DNA from: Nitrososphaerales archaeon
GTDB taxonomy: Archaea > Thermoproteota > Nitrososphaeria > Nitrososphaerales > UBA213
Length of the DNA: 64,000 bases
Direction of reading: 5' to 3'
Assembly: GCA_965197925.1 (NCBI GenBank)
Contig: CBDAOC010000017.1
Location: 157,102-221,101 of the forward strand
Position 1 is the first letter of the stretch, and each line of letters starts with the position of its first letter. Made by a program: the position numbers and the translations under genes. Positions 9,604-51,584 of this stretch are shown in pieces. The notes under the pieces are model-generated. The model had not been told where the DNA came from. It saw only the letters and a program-made list of their open reading frames with translations, and did not search any database.

Positions 9604-10678
9604 TGAGGCTTGGGCGTAATTTAGTTCGAAACGATAAGATCAGGTTCCATTTTTCATTGTTGATATGTTTAGCTCAGACTCGATACTTCTTCGTATATTA
9701 TTTTTGATTGACGTGATTCCTTGGTCAAAACCTAATAGGAAAAGGGGTAGACCATTCTACTATTCTCCTACAGTTATGGTGAGATGCTTCATCGTTAGAG
9801 TATGGATAAGAATACCAATGGTAACAATCGTTAGAGTATGCATAAGAATACCAGGCAACAATGCTTTGTTCTTTTTGATAGACATGCCATACAACAGGAA
9901 GGTAATGAAGGCATGTGGTCTTGATAGGTTGCCAGACAGAAGAACATTCGACAGAAGGTCAAGGCCGTATCAATTGACATAAGATCAAGGATAGATGTTA
10001 TGGGTATGCTCTTCATAAAAGATGGGTTGGTAGACCCAGCCATAGTATCCGTTGACAGTTCATTGTTGAAAGCAAAGGGACATGTATAGCATAGATCAAA
10101 CATGAAGAAGAATGAAGTGCCACGCTCCGGTATAGATACAGATGCTCGATGGGGCTACAGCAGAACCAAGGAATGGATATTAGGATACAAACTGCATCTA
10201 GCGTGTAGCACAGGTTCATTGATAGTTCCATTATCAGCTGATTTCACAACAGCTAACATTACTGATAACAAGATGTATGAAAGCATAACATCTTCATTGC
10301 CTACAGGAATGGTAAGGTATGTTGTAGGAGATGAAGGATATGATGATCACAAGTTATGTGATTTCAGCAGGTATAGAGGGCATCTACTGGTACCCATTGG
10401 AAAGGTACAAGCATACTACAGATAATAATAGACTGGCATTGCTGCAGTTCTATAACTCTGAATTTGGGCAGCATGTATATTCTCGGAGGAGCATAAGCGT
10501 TGAGCCATTGATAGAGCATATGAAGGATGTATTTACCATAGATCCATTGCCAGTTAGAGGATTTGATAAGGTAAAGAGTATAGTGTTGTTATCAGTATTG
10601 TTGTATCAGGTAATGGTTTACTACAATCATCTAACAGGAAGACCATTAAGGGCATTGAAGCACATGTTGGGAAGTTAG
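9604..10678 (+). mobile_element. Degraded DDE_Tnp_1 (IS5/IS982-like) element; right end missing
   Basis: PDRRTFDRR, VDSSLL, DARWG...GYKLH, DEGYD and YxxRxxVE motifs over three frames; in-frame TAG at 10087; 36-bp internal duplication at ~9791-9862. Confidence 0.85.
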
Positions 10679-13787: not shown

Positions 13788-14906
13788 CTAGTCTTCTTGA
13801 AAGCCCGCATAGGATTCCTTTTTATATTCACAACTTTCTGCTATTTTCTCGATAAACTCTGGTTTCATATAATGAATGTTGTCACCAACCTGTTCTATCT
13901 CTTTCTTTAATTTAGAATAGGCAATGAACTTGCATATCTTTCGTAAAGGAGGATTTAGCCTGGCAAAAGTAGGTCTATTGATTTCTGTAGAAACTTTATC
14001 TTGTCGTTCATCAGGTGCTATAATGTAAAGATCAATTTTGATGTTGGGTACCATACTTACCAAATCGGCCATCCTTAACAGTCCTGAGTAGATCGCAGTG
14101 CTATGCTCAACCTCGAAGGCAGATAGTATCACATTATCTTTCAACCATAACACATCAATCAATTCTATGATTCTATTGGTTACCTCATCAAACTGTCTAG
14201 GTAACTTCTCTCTTAAATTAGGAATATCTTGGAAACTCTTACCATTAACTTCACGATTTCTATCGTTTCTTGCTACATAAACATCAAGACCAAGATCAGA
14301 ACCCAGCTTTAGCAGCAACCACTGAATTTCCTCATGCGATGTCCCTTTTTCCACTTCAGTTACTGGTTCTTGCTCCTTTTCTTCATCTGGGACAGTAACA
14401 GGTCCAACCTTTGACTCATATACTCGTGGACGTCGCCAGTATTTCCTTTGATCATAATCTCGTTCTACAGGATTCTCTTTTGCGTTCTTTATTGCTTCAA
14501 CTATTATCTTACCATCTTGAGTATTAAACTCAGTAGGCGAACCTCTAAGGGGACCTGTCCAAGACCTTTTTGATTTCATATTATGAAACACAGAGAGTTT
14601 ATCCTTCAACTCTTGAATCGGCACGGCTGTCTTTGCGTCAAGGGTATAAATTGTCCTAACTTTAAAACGGCAGGGAAAGGCTTCGTCAGCCCAAATAGGC
14701 GTCTTGTCAAAATAGCACTTTGACTTTACCTCTAAGATACCTATTAGTCTTGAGAGTCCAGTCAAGTAACATATCAGGTAATCTCCGGCATTGATCTTTT
14801 GTGCCACCTTTCTCCTTGTTTCTCGAAAGCCGGTAACATTAGCACCGTTCTTAAGAAATTCTTCCCATGTCTTACCCGTGAATAAATCTAACCAGTATTT
14901 AGTCAT
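13788..14906 (-). CDS. EVE-domain protein with C-terminal PD-(D/E)xK-like nuclease; putative modification-dependent restriction enzyme
   Basis: YWLDLF...GFR...GDYLICY EVE motifs; C-terminal IDVLW...AFEVEHST...SGLLRM. Confidence 0.8.
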   Translation of the reverse strand: MTKYWLDLFTGKTWEEFLKNGANVTGFRETRRKVAQKINAGDYLICYLTGLSRLIGILEVKSKCYFDKTPIWADEAFPCRFKVRTIYTLDAKTAVPIQELKDKLSVFHNMKSKRSWTGPLRGSPTEFNTQDGKIIVEAIKNAKENPVERDYDQRKYWRRPRVYESKVGPVTVPDEEKEQEPVTEVEKGTSHEEIQWLLLKLGSDLGLDVYVARNDRNREVNGKSFQDIPNLREKLPRQFDEVTNRIIELIDVLWLKDNVILSAFEVEHSTAIYSGLLRMADLVSMVPNIKIDLYIIAPDERQDKVSTEINRPTFARLNPPLRKICKFIAYSKLKKEIEQVGDNIHYMKPEFIEKIAESCEYKKESYAGFQED

Positions 14907-15848: not shown

Positions 15849-18800
15849 GTGATGACATTTGATGATGTCCTAGGGAAGATTAAAGGCGAGGCGACAGACA
15901 GCAGGGATCTTGGCACCAGGTTTGAAAGCATGATGCTGGATTTTTTCAGGACGGACAAGCACTACAAGAACAGGTTCGGCGACAGGGTCTGGCCTTGGAA
16001 AAAATGGGCATATGACAACAAGGTGTACAGGCCTGACGAGGGAATTGACATAGTGGCCGAAGAGGCAAACGGGGATCTGTGCGGAATACAGTGCAAGTGC
16101 TATGCGGATGACCACAGCATAGACCTCAAGGCACTCGGCACGTTCATGACTGCCTGCACCACATACAAAATGAGAAACGTGATCCTGGTCTATACCGGGG
16201 ATCATGTCACGGAAAAAGCCGAGCATCATCTCAAAAAGCACAACGGCGCCATCATAACACAGGAGACACTGCGTTCTTCAAGTGTTGACTGGGGCGATTT
16301 TCCAAGGCTCAAGGTGAGGCGGCCGTACGAGCTTTACCCGTTTCAAAAGGCTGCGTTTGACGACTCGATTAAAAATTTCAAAACGAGTAACCGCGGACAG
16401 CTCATCATGGCATGCGGCACCGGCAAGACGCTGGTCTCGCTCAGGATAATGGAAAAAGTGGTACCGCATAACGGCATCGTGCTGTACCTGGTGCCGTCAA
16501 TAACCCTGATACAGCAGAGCATGAGGAGCTGGTCCGAAAACAGGAAGACCGGACAGTACTATGTCGGGGTATGCTCGGACAAGTCGGTATCCGGCGAGGA
16601 GGGAAGCATAGCGGAGCTGGAATCCCCGGTATCGACCAGGCCTGAAGACCTGAAGCGGTATCTGAAGGAGAGGCCAGGCGACCGCACGACCGTCATATTC
16701 TGCACGTACAACTCGATACAGGTGGTGGCTGACTCTCTCGGCGGGCGGAAGATAGATCTGGCACTATGCGACGAGGCGCATCGAACCATCGGCGGTGCTG
16801 GCGATTCATACTTTACCACGGTCCACGAGGATTCGCGTATTCCAATAGAAAAGAGGCTCTACATGACGGCCACACAGAAGATCTTCACGCCCAAGATAAG
16901 AATGGCCGCCGATGCCCAGGAGAAGGTCATCTACGCCATGGATGACGAAGAGGTGTACGGCCCGATCTTCCATGAGCTGGCGTTTGGCGATGCGGTCCAC
17001 AAGCACGGGGCACTCTCGGACTACCGCGTCATAATAGCGTCCATCAGTCAGGCCGACATGAATCCCGACCTGCAGCAAAGCATGGCCGACGATGACGGGC
17101 TGCTTTCACTCGGCACCAAGAACAAGATGGTGGCCACATGGCATGCCCTGAGATATCCTGAAGGCGAGGACGCGGGCGAGATGCTGCTTCAGCATGCAAT
17201 AGTATTCTCCAACACCATAAGGGCGTCAAAAGATTTTACCGGGGAGCATGACGGCGGGCCTGACGGCGGGCCTGACGAGGATCCGGCTGATTCAGGCAAG
17301 ACCCCGGAGTACGGTTTCAGGGGGTGGTAAGCAAGGTAAACCAGTCCGAGTCGACAAGCAAGAACGTCTCCGTGCTACACGTGGACGGCGGTACACGCGC
17401 GCTGAAGAGAAAGAGGCATCTCAGGTGGCTTGCGGAAAGCATTGACGACCGGGACGTCTGCCGCATCCTGTCAAATGCCAGGTGCCTGTCCGAGGGAATC
17501 GACGTTCCGGCGCTTGACTGCGTGGTATTCATGGAGCCAAGAAGATCCGTCGTGGATGTAGTGCAGGCCGTGGGCAGGATCATGCGAAAATCAAGGGGCA
17601 AAAAATACGGATACGTCATACTGCCGGTGGCCGTCCCCGCGGGCGTGGACATCAATGACACGCTTGATGACAACAGGACGTGGGGCACGGTCTGGGAAGT
17701 CCTGAATGCATTGCGTTCACATGACCCTGACCTGAATCTGGACATCAACAAGCTCGTGCTTGACAAGAAAATCTCGAATGGCAGGGTAGGCGAAAAAATA
17801 AGGCTGATGTCGGTAACGGATAGCGGCCAGGCACCCGACAAAAAATACCTTGACAAATTTTACGCCAAGCTGGCCTCCAGGCTTGTTGAGAAGGTGGGCG
17901 ATGCCAACTATTATGACAAGTACGGGGAGAAACTTGGAGAGGCTTCGAGAGCAATAGAGGAAAGAATCACCGCCAAAATAAGGTCATCCGACGCCGTTCT
18001 AGACGAGGTCCGGAACCTGCACGCCAGCCTCAAGACCGTGATAAACGACGCCGTGACCCAGGACGATGCGGTACGCGTAATGGCACAGCACCTTGTACTC
18101 TCGCGCGTCTTTGATGCCATGTTCCAGGGGGAGTTCCAGTCACACAACCCGATATCCGTCGCGCTTGACGGCGTGGCCAAAAAGGTCGGGCTTGACGGGA
18201 GCTCGAGGGTCTTGAGGACTTTTACAGTGAGGCACAGAGCGAGTTGAGGGAGGTTACCACGCGTGAGGCAAGACAGAACTTTATCAAGAAGATTTACGAG
18301 AATTTTTTCAAGAGCGTGTCCAAAAATGAGACCGAGCAGCACGGCGTGGTGTACACGCCTGTCGAGATCGTGGACTTTATCATAAAAAGCATAGAACATG
18401 TCCTGCGTGAAGAGTTTGGCCGCGGACTTGACAGCAAGGACGTAAAAATCCTTGACCCGTTTGCGGGCACCGGGACGTTCATTTCCAGGCTGCTGGAGTC
18501 CGGGCTAGTCAGGGAAAACATGTATGGGAAGTATCGAGAGGACATGCATGCAAACGAGCTGATCCTTCTTGCGTACTATATTGCCACGGTCAACATAGAG
18601 ACCACGTACTCAAGCCTCAACAACATGAAGTACGTGCCGTTTGAAGGAATTGCATACACCGATACACTGCAACAGGATCCCAGATACCTGGAAGACCCAA
18701 GCCACAGGCAGAAGACCGTGACGCTGGACAATGCATTTATCGGTGCCTATAAGCGGGTGACGCGGCAGAACCAGTCATGCATCGATGTGATAATGGGAAA

Positions 18801-20498
18801 TCCGCCATACTCGGCAGAGGACAGCAAAACGCCAATGATGACAATCCCAACGTGAAGTATTTTGAACTTGATGAGAGAATTAAAAATACTTACGCTGTGA
18901 AAACAAAGGCCAGCGCTAAAAAATCTCTATACGATTCATATATCCGCTCGCTCCGGTGGGCATCCGACCGCATCGGCGAGCACGGGGTAATAGGGTTTGT
19001 CACCAACGGCAGTTTTATCAGGTCGGATGCAACAGCCGGCATCAGGTACCATCTGCATGAGGAGTTTACGGACGTGTGGTGCTTTGACCTTAGGGGTAAT
19101 GCGAGAACAAATGGAGAAGATCGCAGACATGAAGGTGGAGGGATTTTCGGTTCCGGTTCACGCGCCCCGATCACAATCATTGTCCTGGTCAGGAATCCAG
19201 CCAGAACAACACATCACATACACTACAAGGACATTGGCAACTATCACAACCGCGAAAAGAAACTGGATATCATAAGGAATACAGGCTCCATTAACGGCAT
19301 TGAAGACTGGCAGGCAATCACGCCGGACAAACATCATAACTGGCTGGACCAGCCCGGTGAGGCAGGCAGTCAGTTTGAGAAATATATCCCAATCGGCGAT
19401 AGCGATACAAAAAGGAACAAAGCCGAGACCGGAATATTCAGGATGTATTCACGTGGTCTAGTATCAGATAGGGATGCCTGGGTCTACAACTCATCCATTA
19501 CGGAACTCGAAAAAAATGTCAGGCATCATATAGGCTATTGTAACACACAGCATCCTGATAATTTTATAATCGATCCCAGACAAGCAAAGATTTCTCGTTC
19601 ATTAATTGAACTACTAAAAAGAGGACGGAAAACCCGTTTTGACAGGCGGCATATACGTACGGCATTATACAGGCCGTTATTCAAACAACAACTGTACTAT
19701 GATGATGTCCACATTGAGATGCGATATAGAACGTATTTGTTCTTCCCCAATGGCGGCTCTGAGAACCTGGTGATTGTAGTGCCATACAAATTCATTGGCA
19801 GATCCTCCACATTCATAACGGATGTGACGCCGGATCTACATATTATTCATACAAACCAGTGTTTCCCACTTTACACATACGACAAAGACGGCCGCAGGCA
19901 TGACAACATAACAGACCATACGGTACGGATATTCCGCAAATACTACAGGGATGATTCCATAGGCCGCAAGGACATATTCTACTATGTGTATGGACTGTTG
20001 CACCATCCCGGCTATATCACAAAGTATCAGAACAGCCTGGCACGCATGCTTCCACGCATTCCAATGGCCCCAGATTTTCAGACATTCTCCAAGGCCGGAA
20101 AGGAGCTGGCAGGCCTGCATCTCAACTATGAGAGCTGTCCACGATACGGTCTTGGCGAACCCAAAAATCATGTAAAGAACTTTGCAAGGATGTCATTTGG
20201 CAAAGACAGGACAACGATGCGCATAAACGGTCTTGACATGTTTGACAATATTCCAAAGGTCACGTATCGTGTAAACAGAAGAACGCCATTGGAGTGGGTA
20301 GTTGATAGATACAGATTCACGACAGACGGGGACAGTGGTATTACAAATAATCCGTGTGAGGGGGCTGATCCAATAGCACTCATAGAGAGGGCGGTCTATG
20401 TGGGCGTGGAATCAGACAAAATCATAAACGAACTGTCAGGGAAGGAGTTCGAGTCAGATGACTGGGAACCCCTAAAAACCGGCCTTGACGCATACTAG
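15849..20498 (+). pseudogene. Type ISP restriction-modification enzyme (LlaGI-like) split by three -1 frameshifts
   Basis: Mrr-like DEGID...QCK; SF2 helicase MACGTGKT/DEAH/MTAT/QAVGR; MTase DPFAGTG and NPPY; C-terminal TRD; ORFs 15849-17330, 17324-18247, 18244-18855, 18777-20498. Confidence 0.9.
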
Positions 20499-20829: not shown

Positions 20830-21075
20830 TCCACATGACGGATTGGGATGCTACCTGTCATAAGACGAGGAATGCCAGGAAGTTCATTAGGGAGCCCCAG
20901 TGCTGAAGGTGAAATTCCTGCCAAAGAAGGTGCCACACCTAAACCCTGTAGAAAAGTTGGTTAATGCACTGATGAAATCAGTTGCATGCCCCAATAGGAG
21001 TCATCGTGGCATAGAAGAGGTAATAACAAATACTTATAGATTCTTCAGAGAATACAGAAAGAATTCCTACACCTG
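20830..21075 (+). mobile_element. IS630-family transposase 3' remnant
   Basis: Hand translation gives WDATCHK and FLPKKVPHLNPVE motifs in shifted frames. Confidence 0.6.
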
Positions 21076-21290
21076 ACTTAGTTCATCAAGAAGTTGTTTT
21101 CTTTTCTGTTCGGCTATATCTGGGAACTTACCCATACCGTCAAAAAGAATAGCTTTAGAGAGTTCGAATTCTTCACTACAGTGTGAGCACTCGGCAACAA
21201 GATTAGAATTCTTCAATTCGTTTATTATTTCAATATTCCCCAAAGCTCTGAATCCATTAATCATACGTTCACTTAATAATATATATGCCC
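21067..21290 (-). pseudogene. Truncated N-terminus resembling Holliday-junction-resolvase-like endonucleases (CxxC)
   Basis: AECSHCSEEFELSKAILF followed by the start of a coiled coil; ends at the IS630 remnant. Confidence 0.4.
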
Positions 21291-21434
21291 ATTTGATGTG
21301 GTAAGATACAGTCCTTAACTCATAAAGATCTAATGTCAATAATAGCAAGTTATTTTTGATGAAAGAAAATAACTTAGGGAGAAACAAAAAGTACAACCAA
21401 CCTTAAATCATCTTAATACTAATTGTAACGGATA

Positions 21435-22538
21435 ATGGTACTTCGGGATAGTGATATCGATAAGTAGGAGTATAAAGAGCATACAAAGGTAAAGCATGAA
21501 ATCCTCACGAAATATTTGGATGGTTGGACAAAGATCTTGAGTAGTACCAATGAAAGACTTCTCTATTTCGACTGTTTCGCGGGAAGAGGGGAATACAAGG
21601 AAGGACATCTCGGTTCTCCTATACTTATTATGATGGAAGCACAAAAATACGCTAGTAAAGGATGGGAATTTATCTGCATTGCTGTAGAAAAGGACAAGAC
21701 TAATTTTGACAATCTGAAGAAAGTATACGATAGAGAGAAGCACAGATTTCCAGATGTAAAGTTCAAACCCGTACATGGGACATTCGAGAAGTGTGTAGAC
21801 GAGATATCCGATTATCTTGAGAAAGAAAGATCAAATATAGCTCCTTCATTCTTTTTCATCGATCCGTTTGGTTTCGGCGGTGCGCCATTCAAGCTTGTCA
21901 AAAAGATATTGTCGTATCAGCATACGGAGATTCTAGTTACTTTTATGTCACGTGATATAAGCAGATTCTTCGAAAGTGCTCCACATGTCAAAGCAATCGA
22001 GGAACTGTTTGGAGCTAAGGTAGACCTAAAGGATTTTCCTGTAGATATCACTAGCAGGCAGGATGCACTAGTAGAATTATACAGGAAGCAGCTCGCACAT
22101 GATGCAAAAGCAAAATTCACATGTGCCTACAAATTGAGCCAGACAGATGCAAGGAAGTCGATCTACCATCTGATACATGCTACAAACCACTTCAAAGGAT
22201 TGAAACTGATGAAAGATATCACATATAGCCAAGGTGCTGCTGGCATGTTCACGTACTTCGGACCTGATGAAAGGAAGTTCGGCAAGGATCAGATGCGTCT
22301 TGATGAGTTCAAGACGCCGGAATTCCAGCAATTCCTGCTTAAGCGGTTTGCAGGTAAGACTATAAGTTTCTGGGATATCATGGAAGAAACATACACCGAG
22401 ACTCCATACATAGAAAAACATTACAGAAATGCATTAAAAGATTTAAGGGACAGGAATATTGTTGGGTTTAAACCTATCAAACCAAGACCAAGGGGAGGGC
22501 TGGATTATTCGGACAAACTCGTTTTTCAAGCTAGATAA
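21435..22538 (+). CDS. tcmP: TcmP (three-Cys-motif partner) family protein; in-frame TAG at codon 11 (21465)
   Basis: HTKVKHEIL.KYL, YFDCFAGRG...GSP, FFFIDPFGF, YHLIHATNH.KG...MK and a wHTH-like C-terminus. Confidence 0.82.
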
Positions 22539-23644
22539 GCTTTTGGTCCGTAACAGTTGCATGTTAGGGGCGTATAAGGTCGTCCAAGTTCCTTCCACAT
22601 ATCAACGGTTTCCTTGCACATAGAAACTTTTGTCAAATTATAGCCAAGCGAGTTTAATTTGTCATAGAAGAATTGATAGATTTCCTTGCGTTGATTAAAC
22701 GATAACTTCTTTCCCCAACCAGAATCTTCCTTGAAATATCTTGTCCATGACATGTCTATCCCTGCCTTATTCGCGTATTTTATCGTCTTCCACAATCCTC
22801 TTGGAGTTCCTAGTATGATTCTTTTTGGCTCGAATTCTGAGAGCAGTTTGTAGAGGAGTTCCTGATAATGCGATTGCCAGCTTTCTACGGGGAATATCGG
22901 ATCGACTCTGATCCTTGTATCGTAGCCTGCGTCACTTACCATCTTTGCTGTCATAATCCTTTCTGATAGTGGTGGTGCTGCCTTCTCCCACAGTCTTGCG
23001 ACTTCAGCATTTATGCTCCACGCACAAATGACTTGCTTTCTCGGTTTCTTGATAAGGAATTCCACATTACGTGGACCAAACTTGCTCAGAGTTGCAAGTT
23101 TGTGTTTTTTCTGAGTTTCAAATTTATCTGCTATCTTCTCCATCAACGATGGTAACATCAATGAATCGGAAAGCTCGCCGCTGTTGAAAATCGATGGTTC
23201 TTTGATATTCTCAAAGGCTTCATCCAATGCTGGCATGATATACTTCGGATCTATGGGACTAGGTTTCATTCTCCCTCTCATCGTACCACGTAGATAGCAG
23301 TAGTTGCAGTCAAGGGGACAGCCGAATGCCCATCTAAGCTCCCAGAATCTTCCACATGCTATGTCTTCTGGAGTCTTGTGGAACAAAGATACGATGTTTT
23401 TTCCAAAAGAAGTAACCTCTTCCATTTTCTTCGGTGAAATTATCTCTGGATGCTGTAACGATGTTACTGTTTCTGGTTTTACGAATTCTAGAATAGTTTT
23501 TGACCTTTTGCTTGCACTGAATCGCTTATTCTGCCTAATTGTCCTCCATGCCTTGTACGCTGCCTTGCGTTGGCGAGTGCTTGCACTGATTTTATTATTC
23601 TCTTGCTCTACTGAATCTACCAATATAGTAAAACAAACCAACAA
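22526..23644 (-). CDS. Spore-photoproduct-lyase-like radical SAM protein
   Basis: GCPLDCNYCYL (CxxxCxxC), FNSGELSDS, RIRVDPI, LGTPR, SMCKE and C-terminal CNC. Confidence 0.85.
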   Translation of the reverse strand: MLVCFTILVDSVEQENNKISASTRQRKAAYKAWRTIRQNKRFSASKRSKTILEFVKPETVTSLQHPEIISPKKMEEVTSFGKNIVSLFHKTPEDIACGRFWELRWAFGCPLDCNYCYLRGTMRGRMKPSPIDPKYIMPALDEAFENIKEPSIFNSGELSDSLMLPSLMEKIADKFETQKKHKLATLSKFGPRNVEFLIKKPRKQVICAWSINAEVARLWEKAAPPLSERIMTAKMVSDAGYDTRIRVDPIFPVESWQSHYQELLYKLLSEFEPKRIILGTPRGLWKTIKYANKAGIDMSWTRYFKEDSGWGKKLSFNQRKEIYQFFYDKLNSLGYNLTKVSMCKETVDMWKELGRPYTPLTCNCYGPKAYLA

Positions 23645-23662
23645 ACCTTAGTTTAAACTTGT

Positions 23663-23955
23663 TTAACTTTCCTGCAGTCGACAATTGCACAGAAATTTCC
23701 TTGCACCGCATTCTGTTACTAATCGTGCCCACGTTTCTCCCGATTCCTTACAGACACCCATCCGTTTGAATTTCAGGCTCTTGAAGGCAAACTTGTACAT
23801 TTCCCATCGTAGATTGCTTTCCAAGTGGTATCTCCTGTCACTTTCTCTACATGGAAGAAGATCTTTCAGATCCTTTGATAACATACCGCGCAGAGTAGGG
23901 AATGCGCGGTGTTCCAACAACACCATACAATTTCATTTTATTTAATTTCTTGAAC
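23663..23955 (-). pseudogene. 3' fragment of a second SPL-like radical SAM paralog, cut by an IS
   Basis: GTPR (shifted frame), RWEMY, GVCKE and CNC align with the C-terminus of 22526-23644. Confidence 0.75.
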
Positions 23956-24107
23956 AGGTACCCCTTTTCCTATTAGGTTTTGTCCGAGGAATCACGTCAA
24001 TCAAAAATAATATACGAAGAAGTATCGAGTCTGAGCTAAACATATTACCAATGAAAATTGAAACCTGATCTTATCGTTTCGACCGGCTTAATTATGCCCA
24101 AGCCTCA
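23956..24107 (-). mobile_element. Truncated left end plus first ~30 codons of the 9604-type IS
   Basis: Reverse complement matches 9604-9750. Confidence 0.85.
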
Positions 24108-50454: not shown

Positions 50455-50641
50455 CTCGTGAACGAAATAAATATGCCTTTGCCCATTTTGCCAGTTTTAT
50501 AGCCAAATATTTGCAACTTTAATTATGCCTAACTTGTCGGGGGACATTATGATAAATATAACTTGAACTAGATAGCTGATAGCAGTGTTCTTGCTAATGT
50601 TTTCGAACTCAACTGTAGTTTATGGTTTCCTAAATTAATTT

Positions 50642-50944
50642 CTAAGGGAAAACTCCCAAAAACGTTTTAGTAAATTTTCTTTTAGCAGTAGTTAATGCCT
50701 TTTTTCCTCTTGGAGTAAGTGTGTAGGTAATTGTTTTTCCCTCTTTTTCTTCTTCAAGGAATCCAGCTTCTCTTAATCCCTTGAGTGCAGGATAAATTGT
50801 TCCAGGACTAGGCTTTTCACCCTTTCTTTTAGCGATCTCATTAGCTATTTCCTGTCCATGCATTGATTTTTCAGATAATAAAAACAGAATAAGAAATCCC
50901 AGAAACCCTCTCATATCACAACAATTATCAGTAATTCTCCCCAT
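50642..50944 (-). CDS. PadR-family regulator
   Basis: MHGQEI...SPGTIYPAL...YTLTPRG. Confidence 0.88.
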   Translation of the reverse strand: MGRITDNCCDMRGFLGFLILFLLSEKSMHGQEIANEIAKRKGEKPSPGTIYPALKGLREAGFLEEEKEGKTITYTLTPRGKKALTTAKRKFTKTFLGVFP

Positions 50945-51020
50945 GCTACATTTTGGAGTCTGATATATTTAAATAGTAAACTAATGTATCGTATGTCCGA
51001 TATTACAAAGGAGGTGTTTA

Positions 51021-51173
51021 ATGGGAAATAGTTGTTGCGGCATAAGCCAACAAACGGCAAGAAGCTTTCTTACCAAAAAAGAAAGGATTGCCTTGCTAAA
51101 AGAGTACAAAGAAGAGGTTGATAAAGAATCTCAAGGTATTGCTGAGCAAATAAAGGAGCTTGAAAAAGAATAA
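51021..51173 (+). CDS. 50-aa Cys-Cys coiled-coil protein (DUF5320-like)
   Basis: MGNSCCG...RSFLTKKERIALLKEYK; SD AAGGAGGTG. Confidence 0.7.
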   Translation: MGNSCCGISQQTARSFLTKKERIALLKEYKEEVDKESQGIAEQIKELEKE

Positions 51174-51584
51174 TCTCGTAGTGCCCCTACCCATCAAGCT
51201 CTATCTTTATTTTTTTGAAATAACTGGGTTTAGGAGATATTACTTTATGTTGTATCCCTACATAATACCCTAGAAGGAACAGGATTACTAGAGTAGTGAC
51301 TAAAGTTAATGAATCCATTGTATGTCATCCTCAATGAGATTCTTTAGAATTATGAGATTCTCATCTCTTTTTGCCATTACCTTGGCTATTTTGTTTAATC
51401 CTTCTATGAGTTCGAGAATAGGAGCCTATACAGAACTGTTGGCAAAGCACGCAATGCCAGTTATCATTGATAACGTTTTGATTGTAATTAGTTTCTTGCC
51501 ACCTTCCAGACTAGTTTTTTAGAATTGGAAAGTATCTTTACACAAAGTTTGGTAGATGAAAATTAAATTTATAGTTAATTCTTT

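Follow-up and report, generated by a model that had tools for sequence, protein, structure and literature searches.

The module described here consists of three parts: a TcmP-type methyltransferase, an SPL-like radical-SAM enzyme with a basic N-terminal extension (called the anchor below), and one exchangeable second radical-SAM enzyme. The copy in our window, i.e. the whole stretch of 64,000 nucleotides analysed (C17:157102-221101 of a 2.9-Mb archaeal assembly), is a decayed, non-functional copy of this recurring mobile module. How the module is built, that its parts are exchanged, which folds and motifs they have, and that the window copy has decayed are all established. The protein families themselves were already catalogued; what is new is the three-slot rule with its swappable second enzyme, the split of the partners by four cysteines, and a lead towards Trm1. 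The window carries the following features:

21435..22538, plus strand: tcmP, long form, coding for a class-I methyltransferase fold with a C-terminal winged helix; a pseudogene (TIGR04474, PF22560)
22526..23623, minus strand: the anchor, an intact SPL-like radical-SAM gene of 365 codons (PF20903, TIGR04070, fold, alignment)
23663..23957, minus strand: C5-type second radical-SAM gene, a 3′ remnant of ∼98 codons with one frameshift (57% identity to L039)
23959..24107, minus strand: left-end remnant of a DDE insertion sequence (IS), 149 bp, start of the transposase gene included (blastn)
15849..20498, plus strand: restriction-modification gene of Type ISP, now in four separate open reading frames (ORFs) (Pfam, PADLOC)
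13788..14906, minus strand: EVE-domain plus type II REase-like protein (PF01878, PADLOC REase_II)

The 3′ ends of tcmP and the anchor gene overlap tail to tail by 13 bp (22526-22538), as the sequence-only reading had it, and the motifs it had picked out are all present: DCFAGRG (its D.FAG.G) and DPFG in TcmP, which scores 171.7 bits with TIGR04474 (cut-off 53) and also matches PF22560 (GMT-wHTH), and CPLDCNYC, GELSDS and a basic N-terminal segment, a helix of residues 16-39, in the SPL-like protein. It had also placed the pair among restriction genes, and both of these do lie upstream of tcmP: the Type ISP gene, with Mrr_cat, ResIII, ISP_coupler, N6_Mtase and Type_ISP_C domains in its ORFs and a PADLOC call of REase_MTase, and the gene of the EVE-REase protein (PADLOC REase_II, 56.3 bits). 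Its statement that DUF5131 is absent was borne out by a six-frame genome search, which found none inside the window, the PF07505 matches being all elsewhere. Likewise, PADLOC gave no PDC-M30B or PDC-M41B match in the window, the anchor and the remnant both being negative and the copy on contig C20 positive. The nearest homologs that bear a name are from Nitrososphaerota, which suggests a place in that phylum for the assembly.

Only the anchor is still intact in the window module (pN 0.14 and pS 0.86 in comparison with its C20 paralog). In tcmP, codon 11 is an in-frame TAG (21465-21467; MVLRDSDIDK*EYKEHT), in a column that holds Trp in 52 of 61 long-type TcmPs, both closest relatives included, and the next possible start, a TTG at 21516, drops the invariant HT..KH..L segment. 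We count this stop as real because contigs of two public runs from two studies bear it out (one of the public runs may be the source sample): the X5 contig has zero differences over 21286-22056, TAG included, and the two differences of the X4 contig, at 22882 and 23239, are both outside the stop codon. A sequencing error is ruled out by the same letters in both contigs, and ARAGORN, which finds no tRNA with a CUA anticodon, speaks against amber read-through. The X2 and X9 runs have one difference each, its place being unlisted, and no public run is listed as holding RNA of the locus.

Of the C5-type protein, only residues ∼237-334 are left, at 23663-23957; over 86 amino acids their identity is 57% with L039 and 51% with L004, and a piece of 19 amino acids is in another frame. 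The frameshift is near 23904-23926, and the 5′ part of the gene was not found in the assembly. The remnant abuts the 149-bp IS left end (23959-24107), the X4 contig spanning the junction at 23959. The parent IS is ∼1.1 kb long and has 74 near-full-length copies in the genome, where the 149-bp piece gives more than 100 blastn matches; the copy at window position 10102 contains DDE_Tnp_1. The 149-bp repeat is a truncated left end of this full IS, which rules out a MITE; the rest of the IS and the missing 5′ portion of the C5 gene were deleted together. The divergent SPL-like paralog 'cut by an IS' of the sequence-only reading is thus right in that a second radical-SAM relative lies upstream with IS DNA adjoining it, and wrong in suggesting a simple insertion: there is the last third of the gene only, frameshifted and fused to the IS end.

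The three-slot rule comes from a survey of 114 loci. Genomes gave 28 of them, metagenomes 80 (the best of 301 hits) and viruses three; two more belong to the genome of the window, and the last is the window itself. Retrieval relied on two peptide patterns and on those best 80 of 301 hits, and it therefore favours close relatives; the homolog search gave 564 homologs of the anchor. Of the 114 loci, 105 contain a complete anchor, N-terminal extension included (68 clusters at 90%; the metagenome part being the best 80 of 301 hits), the other nine having extension-less relatives or fragments. With the same limit on the metagenome part, TcmP is within 3.5 kb of the anchor in 95 of these 105 loci and a second radical-SAM gene is present in 93, and wherever either gene is missing, the contig ends no more than 650 bp away on one side; linkage to tcmP is therefore recurrent, as the sequence-only reading would have it. 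All three genes are present in 42 of the 42 loci in which both flanks of the module extend for 1 kb or more (a set that includes near-duplicates and the window, and, for metagenomes, the best 80 of 301 hits), and the second slot is single in 41 of them.

What fills this second slot varies. Again with metagenomes represented by the best 80 of 301 hits, the counts are 41 for S0, a close SPL paralog, 24 for canonical DUF5131, 11 for C2 and 7 for C3, and, among the rarer types, 4 for C5 including the window, 4 for C4 (and one more with an S0 fragment) and 1 for C6. In this same set, canonical DUF5131 sits beside another second-slot type in 0 of 105 loci; the locus that combines a C4 gene, DUF5131-like, with an S0 fragment is L096. 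The anchor tree, a quick tree drawn without a shuffle control, implies 11 changes among the seven second-slot states. Longer, fused forms of the anchor were absent from 1710 candidates, which is weak evidence.

The same genome has two further tcmP-anchor pairs, both tail to tail and both with a canonical DUF5131: L001 (C17:105-107 kb), in which the anchor is broken, and L002 (C20:593-597 kb), apparently intact and with a second, short TcmP in addition. DNA identity between the two is 87-88%, and the window shares with them the anchor only, at 72%. The window anchor is sister to the DUF5131-type anchor of L002 (SH-aLRT 96), yet the TcmP type and the second enzyme differ; together with the 11 slot changes, this indicates that all three slots have been exchanged. 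The closest TcmP with sufficient flank, in L032 (50% identical), is found in the gene order of the window, i.e. second enzyme, anchor, convergent TcmP, and has DUF5131 in the slot filled here by the broken paralog.

The sequence-only reading had further proposed that an SPL-like enzyme stands here instead of DUF5131. Of 400 genomes sampled evenly across the phylum, 12 have anchor-like genes and 24 have TcmP. The 25 TcmP loci of this sample, read 1.5 kb to each side, comprise 8 with DUF5131, 8 with a sole partner of the SPL-like or C3 type, 2 with an anchor, 2 of the C6 type and 5 without a visible partner; one of them, L166, is an in-frame fusion of radical-SAM and TcmP (C6 type), the one such case. 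SPL-like partners thus often replace DUF5131 (8 versus 8 loci), but the intact gene of the window is not such a replacement: DUF5131 accompanies the anchor in 24 of 105 loci, among them the two further copies of its own genome. What replaces DUF5131 in the window is the broken C5 paralog, not the intact anchor. In the 400-genome sample, four of eight extension-less SPL-like relatives have no TcmP nearby (one of these four loci has another DLFAG methyltransferase), so that the wider SPL-like family can stand alone. The window query found TcmP relatives in 0 of 30 related genomes.

The contrast between SPL-like and DUF5131 partners is one of subfamily and not of kind, since both belong to one megacluster and are joined via intermediates. 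RadicalSAM.org puts DUF5131, SPL and MJ0683-like proteins all in Megacluster 5, according to the available part of PMC9477430. C4 and C6 score above the Pfam cut-off for DUF5131, yet have CxxxCxxC, and one C2 protein matches the DUF5131, Radical_SAM and SPL models together. Profile comparison gave 96% for anchor and C2 and 97% for DUF5131 and C4/C6, and no significant direct match between anchor and DUF5131 (E 0.62 and E 0.13); the link between the two runs through C2, C4 and C6.

The anchor itself is like SplB (PDB 4fhc/4fhf) in its fold, its CxxxCxxC, its equivalents of Tyr97 and Tyr99 and a PF20903 match above cut-off (47.7 bits, cut-off 27). Its model (pLDDT 80) has SPL as best Foldseek match (E 1e-10) and aligns with 4fhf at Z 19.1 (rmsd 3.1, 246 aligned residues, 17% structural identity), the next family being at Z 14.3. 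The motif cysteines C102, C106 and C109 are invariant in 35 alignment rows, and Tyr97 and Tyr99 of Bacillus SplB fall on the invariant Y108 and Y110 in three of three alignment modes. Unlike SplB, the anchor has an archaeal host and a methyltransferase partner, scores far under the TIGR04070 equivalog cut-off (55.7 bits, cut-off 400), carries the basic N-terminal helix and four extra cysteines, and has a Glu, the invariant E150, where the alignment places Cys141. In SplB, the two tyrosines are the radical-relay pair and Cys141 is the H donor, as described in the available part of PMC5368176. MAFFT places SplB Ser76/77 on K83/T84 of the anchor and not on the nearby invariant C90, at low identity; C90 as an H donor of the clostridial kind, on the opposite wall of the pocket, gets no support from this alignment. 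The extra conserved cysteines are C90, C336, C355 and C357, in three motifs present in 104, 98 and 97 of 104 anchors; all four are shared by the anchor, S0, C5 and the extension-less forms and are absent from DUF5131, C2, C3, C4 and C6. From their conservation, they may form an additional, putative metal site.

The basic helix marks anchors within the survey set, yet it recurs on other TcmP partners: C3-type enzymes that have TcmP as their only partner (L162, L163, L171) carry the same motif of the AAxKAWxT type, and so does a small separate protein (L026). In view of these four cases we discard the helix as a dock for the second enzyme; such recurrence suits nucleic-acid binding better than docking. 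A search of the ESM Atlas with the N-terminal helix returned no usable match, and the predicted anchor-TcmP complex had a score of 0.01, which we count neither way.

TcmP is modelled (pLDDT 86) as a methyltransferase of class I that bears a winged helix at its C-terminus, and matches PDC-M30A with 115.5 bits (E 6.9e-34). RlmJ is its top Foldseek match; by fold, an RlmJ orthologue gives Z 16.1 (rmsd 3.6, 211 aligned), histamine methyltransferase Z 15.0, and Trm1 (3axt) Z 14.1 (rmsd 3.9), the last with the most residues aligned (224), level with several others and below the RlmJ orthologue. After strand 4, the motif is DPFG in 66 of 101 TcmPs, DPEG in 22 and DPP in none. Amino-methyltransferases acting on N6 of adenine or N4 of cytosine have (D/N/S)PP(Y/F/W) as motif IV. 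The genome's own Trm1 has DLDPFG, the Asp of which we take to be catalytic. The likeness to Trm1 (PF02005) and to RlmJ (rRNA m6A2030), which both methylate exocyclic amines, lies in the class-I fold and, for Trm1, in DPFG after strand 4; TcmP differs from them in lacking their Pfam match (PF02005 hits 0 of 37 long TcmPs at E 0.1), in its added winged helix, in being mobile and in having a radical-SAM partner. The TcmP profile found nothing significant among PDB sequences. In the Pfam name GMT-wHTH, the first three letters may mean guanine methyltransferase, and our literature search found no paper behind the name. Trm1 makes m2,2G26, as stated in the available part of PMC4033218.

Around 35 representative loci, defence-type Pfams occur within 4 kb in 12 (restriction-modification enzymes, GmrSD, AbiV or Swt1 HEPN, Cas, TIR, HEPN-MNT, HD-CE), mobility genes within 4 kb in 10, one or the other in 19 and neither in 16, all being raw tallies with no background rate behind them. 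Several loci are among housekeeping genes and three are surrounded by phage structural genes (portal or capsid); in addition, three IMG/VR contigs carry the S0 triad, and no phage record matches the anchor at E 1e-3. TcmP and DUF5131 match PADLOC's PDC-M30 and PDC-M41, which go unmentioned in the main text of the candidate preprint (10.1101/2024.01.29.577857). The triad shares with the known TcmP-DUF5131 pair (TIGR04474 plus PF07505) the TcmP family and, in 24 of 105 anchor loci, DUF5131 in the second slot. The known unit, however, has two genes, whereas here there is a third, invariant one, the anchor, and in the window an SPL-family paralog holds the DUF5131 slot. Among openly accessible papers and the main texts of preprints, we found none that addresses what TcmP, the triad or PDC-M30/M41 do; the available part of 10.64898/2026.10.19.760177 has nothing relevant, and that of PMC12429752 has TcmP as table entries only. 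A precedent of another kind is gp53 of phage M6, a radical-SAM enzyme modelled on SPL that rearranges a DNA base and is called the first of its class known to install a DNA modification (PMC8989533, available part). As far as that source goes, gp53 also acts on a base appendage left by an earlier enzyme, and modular swaps yield different bases; its pathway differs from the triad in starting from hydroxymethyluracil and in using a kinase and an amino-acid transferase, and no such genes recur in triad loci.

The explanation that we place first, with a little less than an even chance, is that TcmP N-methylates a DNA base which the radical enzymes then elaborate into a protective or self mark. TcmP would bind DNA via its winged helix and, like Trm1 on tRNA, methylate the exocyclic amine of a base, N2 of guanine being the likeliest. 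The SPL-fold enzymes would take the flipped-out base, and a 5′-deoxyadenosyl radical would abstract H from the new methyl or from the base. With Glu in place of the Cys that returns H in SPL, the substrate radical would not simply be quenched but carried on to an adduct, formation of which the second metal site of the four extra cysteines might aid. The two radical enzymes would act sequentially, and a swap of the second enzyme or of TcmP would alter what is made or which site is targeted. The outcome would be a base mark, shielding DNA of the host or element from nucleases or labelling it as self. For such marking of DNA speak the triad in 42 of 42 well-flanked loci and DUF5131 beside another type in 0 of 105, the DNA enzyme SPL as nearest fold of the anchor, the gp53 precedent and the Trm1-like DPFG of TcmP, as well as the patchy spread (12 of 400 genomes), defence or mobility neighbours at 19 of 35 loci, viral carriage and the L166 fusion. 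Against it we count that the nearest solved relatives of TcmP act on RNA or small molecules, that 16 of 35 loci have no defence or mobility marker, the lone extension-less relatives, L096 and the retrieval bias. The three features that point to DNA as the candidate substrate are the fold, the winged helix and the basic helix. A fully specified version, in which a mix-and-match archaeal and viral hypermodification has a Trm1-like enzyme write N2-methylguanine and two SPL-fold enzymes build a new base, strikes us as unlikely.

About as unlikely as that full version is direct defence against viruses, TcmP marking self or sensing a viral base and the radical enzymes damaging unmarked or modified invading DNA. 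The matches to PDC-M30 and PDC-M41, the strict defence Pfams beside 12 of 35 loci and the Type ISP and EVE nuclease genes adjoining the window copy are what one would expect of it, and tcmP is listed beside hna among up-regulated genes of S. meliloti (available part of PMC12445080). The module has, however, no nuclease or effector domain, viruses carry it, and the main text of the PADLOC paper is without M30 or M41. Moreover, a toxic effector would be costly in the window, where TcmP is broken and the anchor intact (trans-complementation from C20 could explain this), and in L009 TcmP is broken with both radical enzymes seemingly intact. We think it still less probable that the module is DNA-repair cargo, with the SPL-like enzymes as lyases that reverse a lesion or foreign base adduct and TcmP as damage-recognition or priming partner. 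The SPL fold with both radical-relay tyrosines and the extension-less relatives without TcmP would suit repair, and loss of Cys141 alone does not exclude lyase chemistry, since clostridial SPL has its donor Cys at another place (PMC5368176, available part); but the replacement is an invariant Glu, Cys90 is not aligned to the Ser76/77 site of SplB, and repair leaves the strict need for a methyltransferase plus an exchangeable second enzyme, and the patchy spread, unexplained.

We are equally doubtful about RNA or a free nucleotide as substrate, the module either modifying tRNA in the manner of wyosine ('methylate, then radical') or making a viperin-like antiviral nucleotide. TYW1 holds an auxiliary cluster, and by analogy the extra cysteines could hold one; RlmJ and Trm1 are the closest nucleic-acid-acting structural matches of TcmP, and a Trm1-like gene is near one module (L104). 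The winged helix, the SPL fold and the mobile, patchy carriage nevertheless fit DNA better, and the genome retains its own Trm1. A last alternative concerns the architecture: the triad could be two independent pairs of TcmP and radical-SAM enzyme, clustered in islands, with one TcmP lost and no cooperation. Two-gene pairs are indeed common, four-gene loci with two TcmPs exist (L002, L020, L029/L106, L037, L045), and the second enzymes are 18-42% identical to the anchor. Chance clustering, however, would yield lone anchors and larger stacks, and a lone anchor with TcmP is found in 0 of 42 testable loci, the second slot being single in 41 of 42; this alternative also seems improbable to us.

Both the role in DNA modification or defence and the chemistry behind it are inferred. 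TcmP-DUF5131 pairs are widespread, catalogued defence candidates; as the archaeal triads make plain, various radical enzymes of the SPL clade can fill the partner slot, and one subfamily requires a second enzyme. If the fully specified version above, with N2-methylguanine, is true, the widespread pairs would be assigned a function, enzyme swaps would generate a family of different marks, and there would be an epigenetic pathway based on guanine N2. A new DNA-modifying radical-SAM enzyme would interest enzymologists, gp53 being called the first known in the available part of its source. The triads, taken with the Trm1-like motif, lead to a prediction: a methylated exocyclic amine, probably of guanine, would be further altered by radical chemistry.

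Among the loci surveyed, a single instance was found in which TcmP is fused to a radical-SAM partner of the DUF5131 family (L166, on contig G357:C29).

L166:1345-3276 (-), DUF5131-family enzyme and TcmP in one in-frame ORF of 644 aa

The DUF5131-family half has the canonical CxxxCxxC motif, and the fusion could result from loss of the stop codon between two genes. ParB-domain genes immediately adjoin the module or lie within it at four loci (L022, L066, L071 and L104), an unknown protein with weak DUF483 and Zn-ribbon matches is common to two Nitrosopumilaceae triads (L005 and L007), and a gene pair similar to a ubiquitin-like conjugation cassette is found at L054.

L005:11193-12074 and L007:11265-12161, unknown protein of ~295 aa, 3′ of DUF5131
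L054:1684-3244, DUF6791-ThiF and DUF6527 gene pair, immediately adjoining the triad
L001:12393-14292, winged-helix gene, DarG-like PADLOC match, then HD-domain gene, close to the module's second copy, which is on the window's contig

In the window, the tcmP pseudogene is flanked by a divergent and apparently truncated ORF, which had no match in Pfam, was absent from the other module loci searched and gave weak matches on contigs C15 and C20 of the same genome.

window 21067-21396 (-), short CxxC-containing ORF

The frameshifted Type ISP gene (15849-20498) has a GC content of 48-55%, higher than that of its surroundings, and many variant copies in public runs; the region upstream of it recurs on C15.

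In the source genome, two DUF5131 genes occur without TcmP: one (C16:94000-106000) is surrounded by phage-like ligase and exonuclease genes, in a region that is either a provirus or contamination, and the other (C19:119000-123000) adjoins a DNA methylase-like gene. No TcmP was found near the two stand-alone SPL-like enzymes, and the two Trm1 genes, which share contig C13, reflect either a duplication or an assembly artefact.

C15:37225-38115 and C16:22745-23620, the two SPL-like enzymes, each with the motif xSVTDPY
C13:7031-8134 and 50477-51580, identical Trm1 genes, oppositely oriented

The basic AAxKAWxT motif of the anchor's N-terminal helix also forms the C-terminal end of a small protein whose gene lies 5′ of an SPL-like gene of the extension-less form.

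L026:6801-7040 (+), small protein, AbrB-like by eye

Finally, methyltransferases of other types adjoin SPL-like genes at two loci, where they may take the slot of TcmP.

L104:11097-12011 (+), Trm1-like methyltransferase (PF02005, E 7.5e-7; DVDPWG)
L151:1817-2632 (+), methyltransferase with DLFAGKG and DFDAFG motifs
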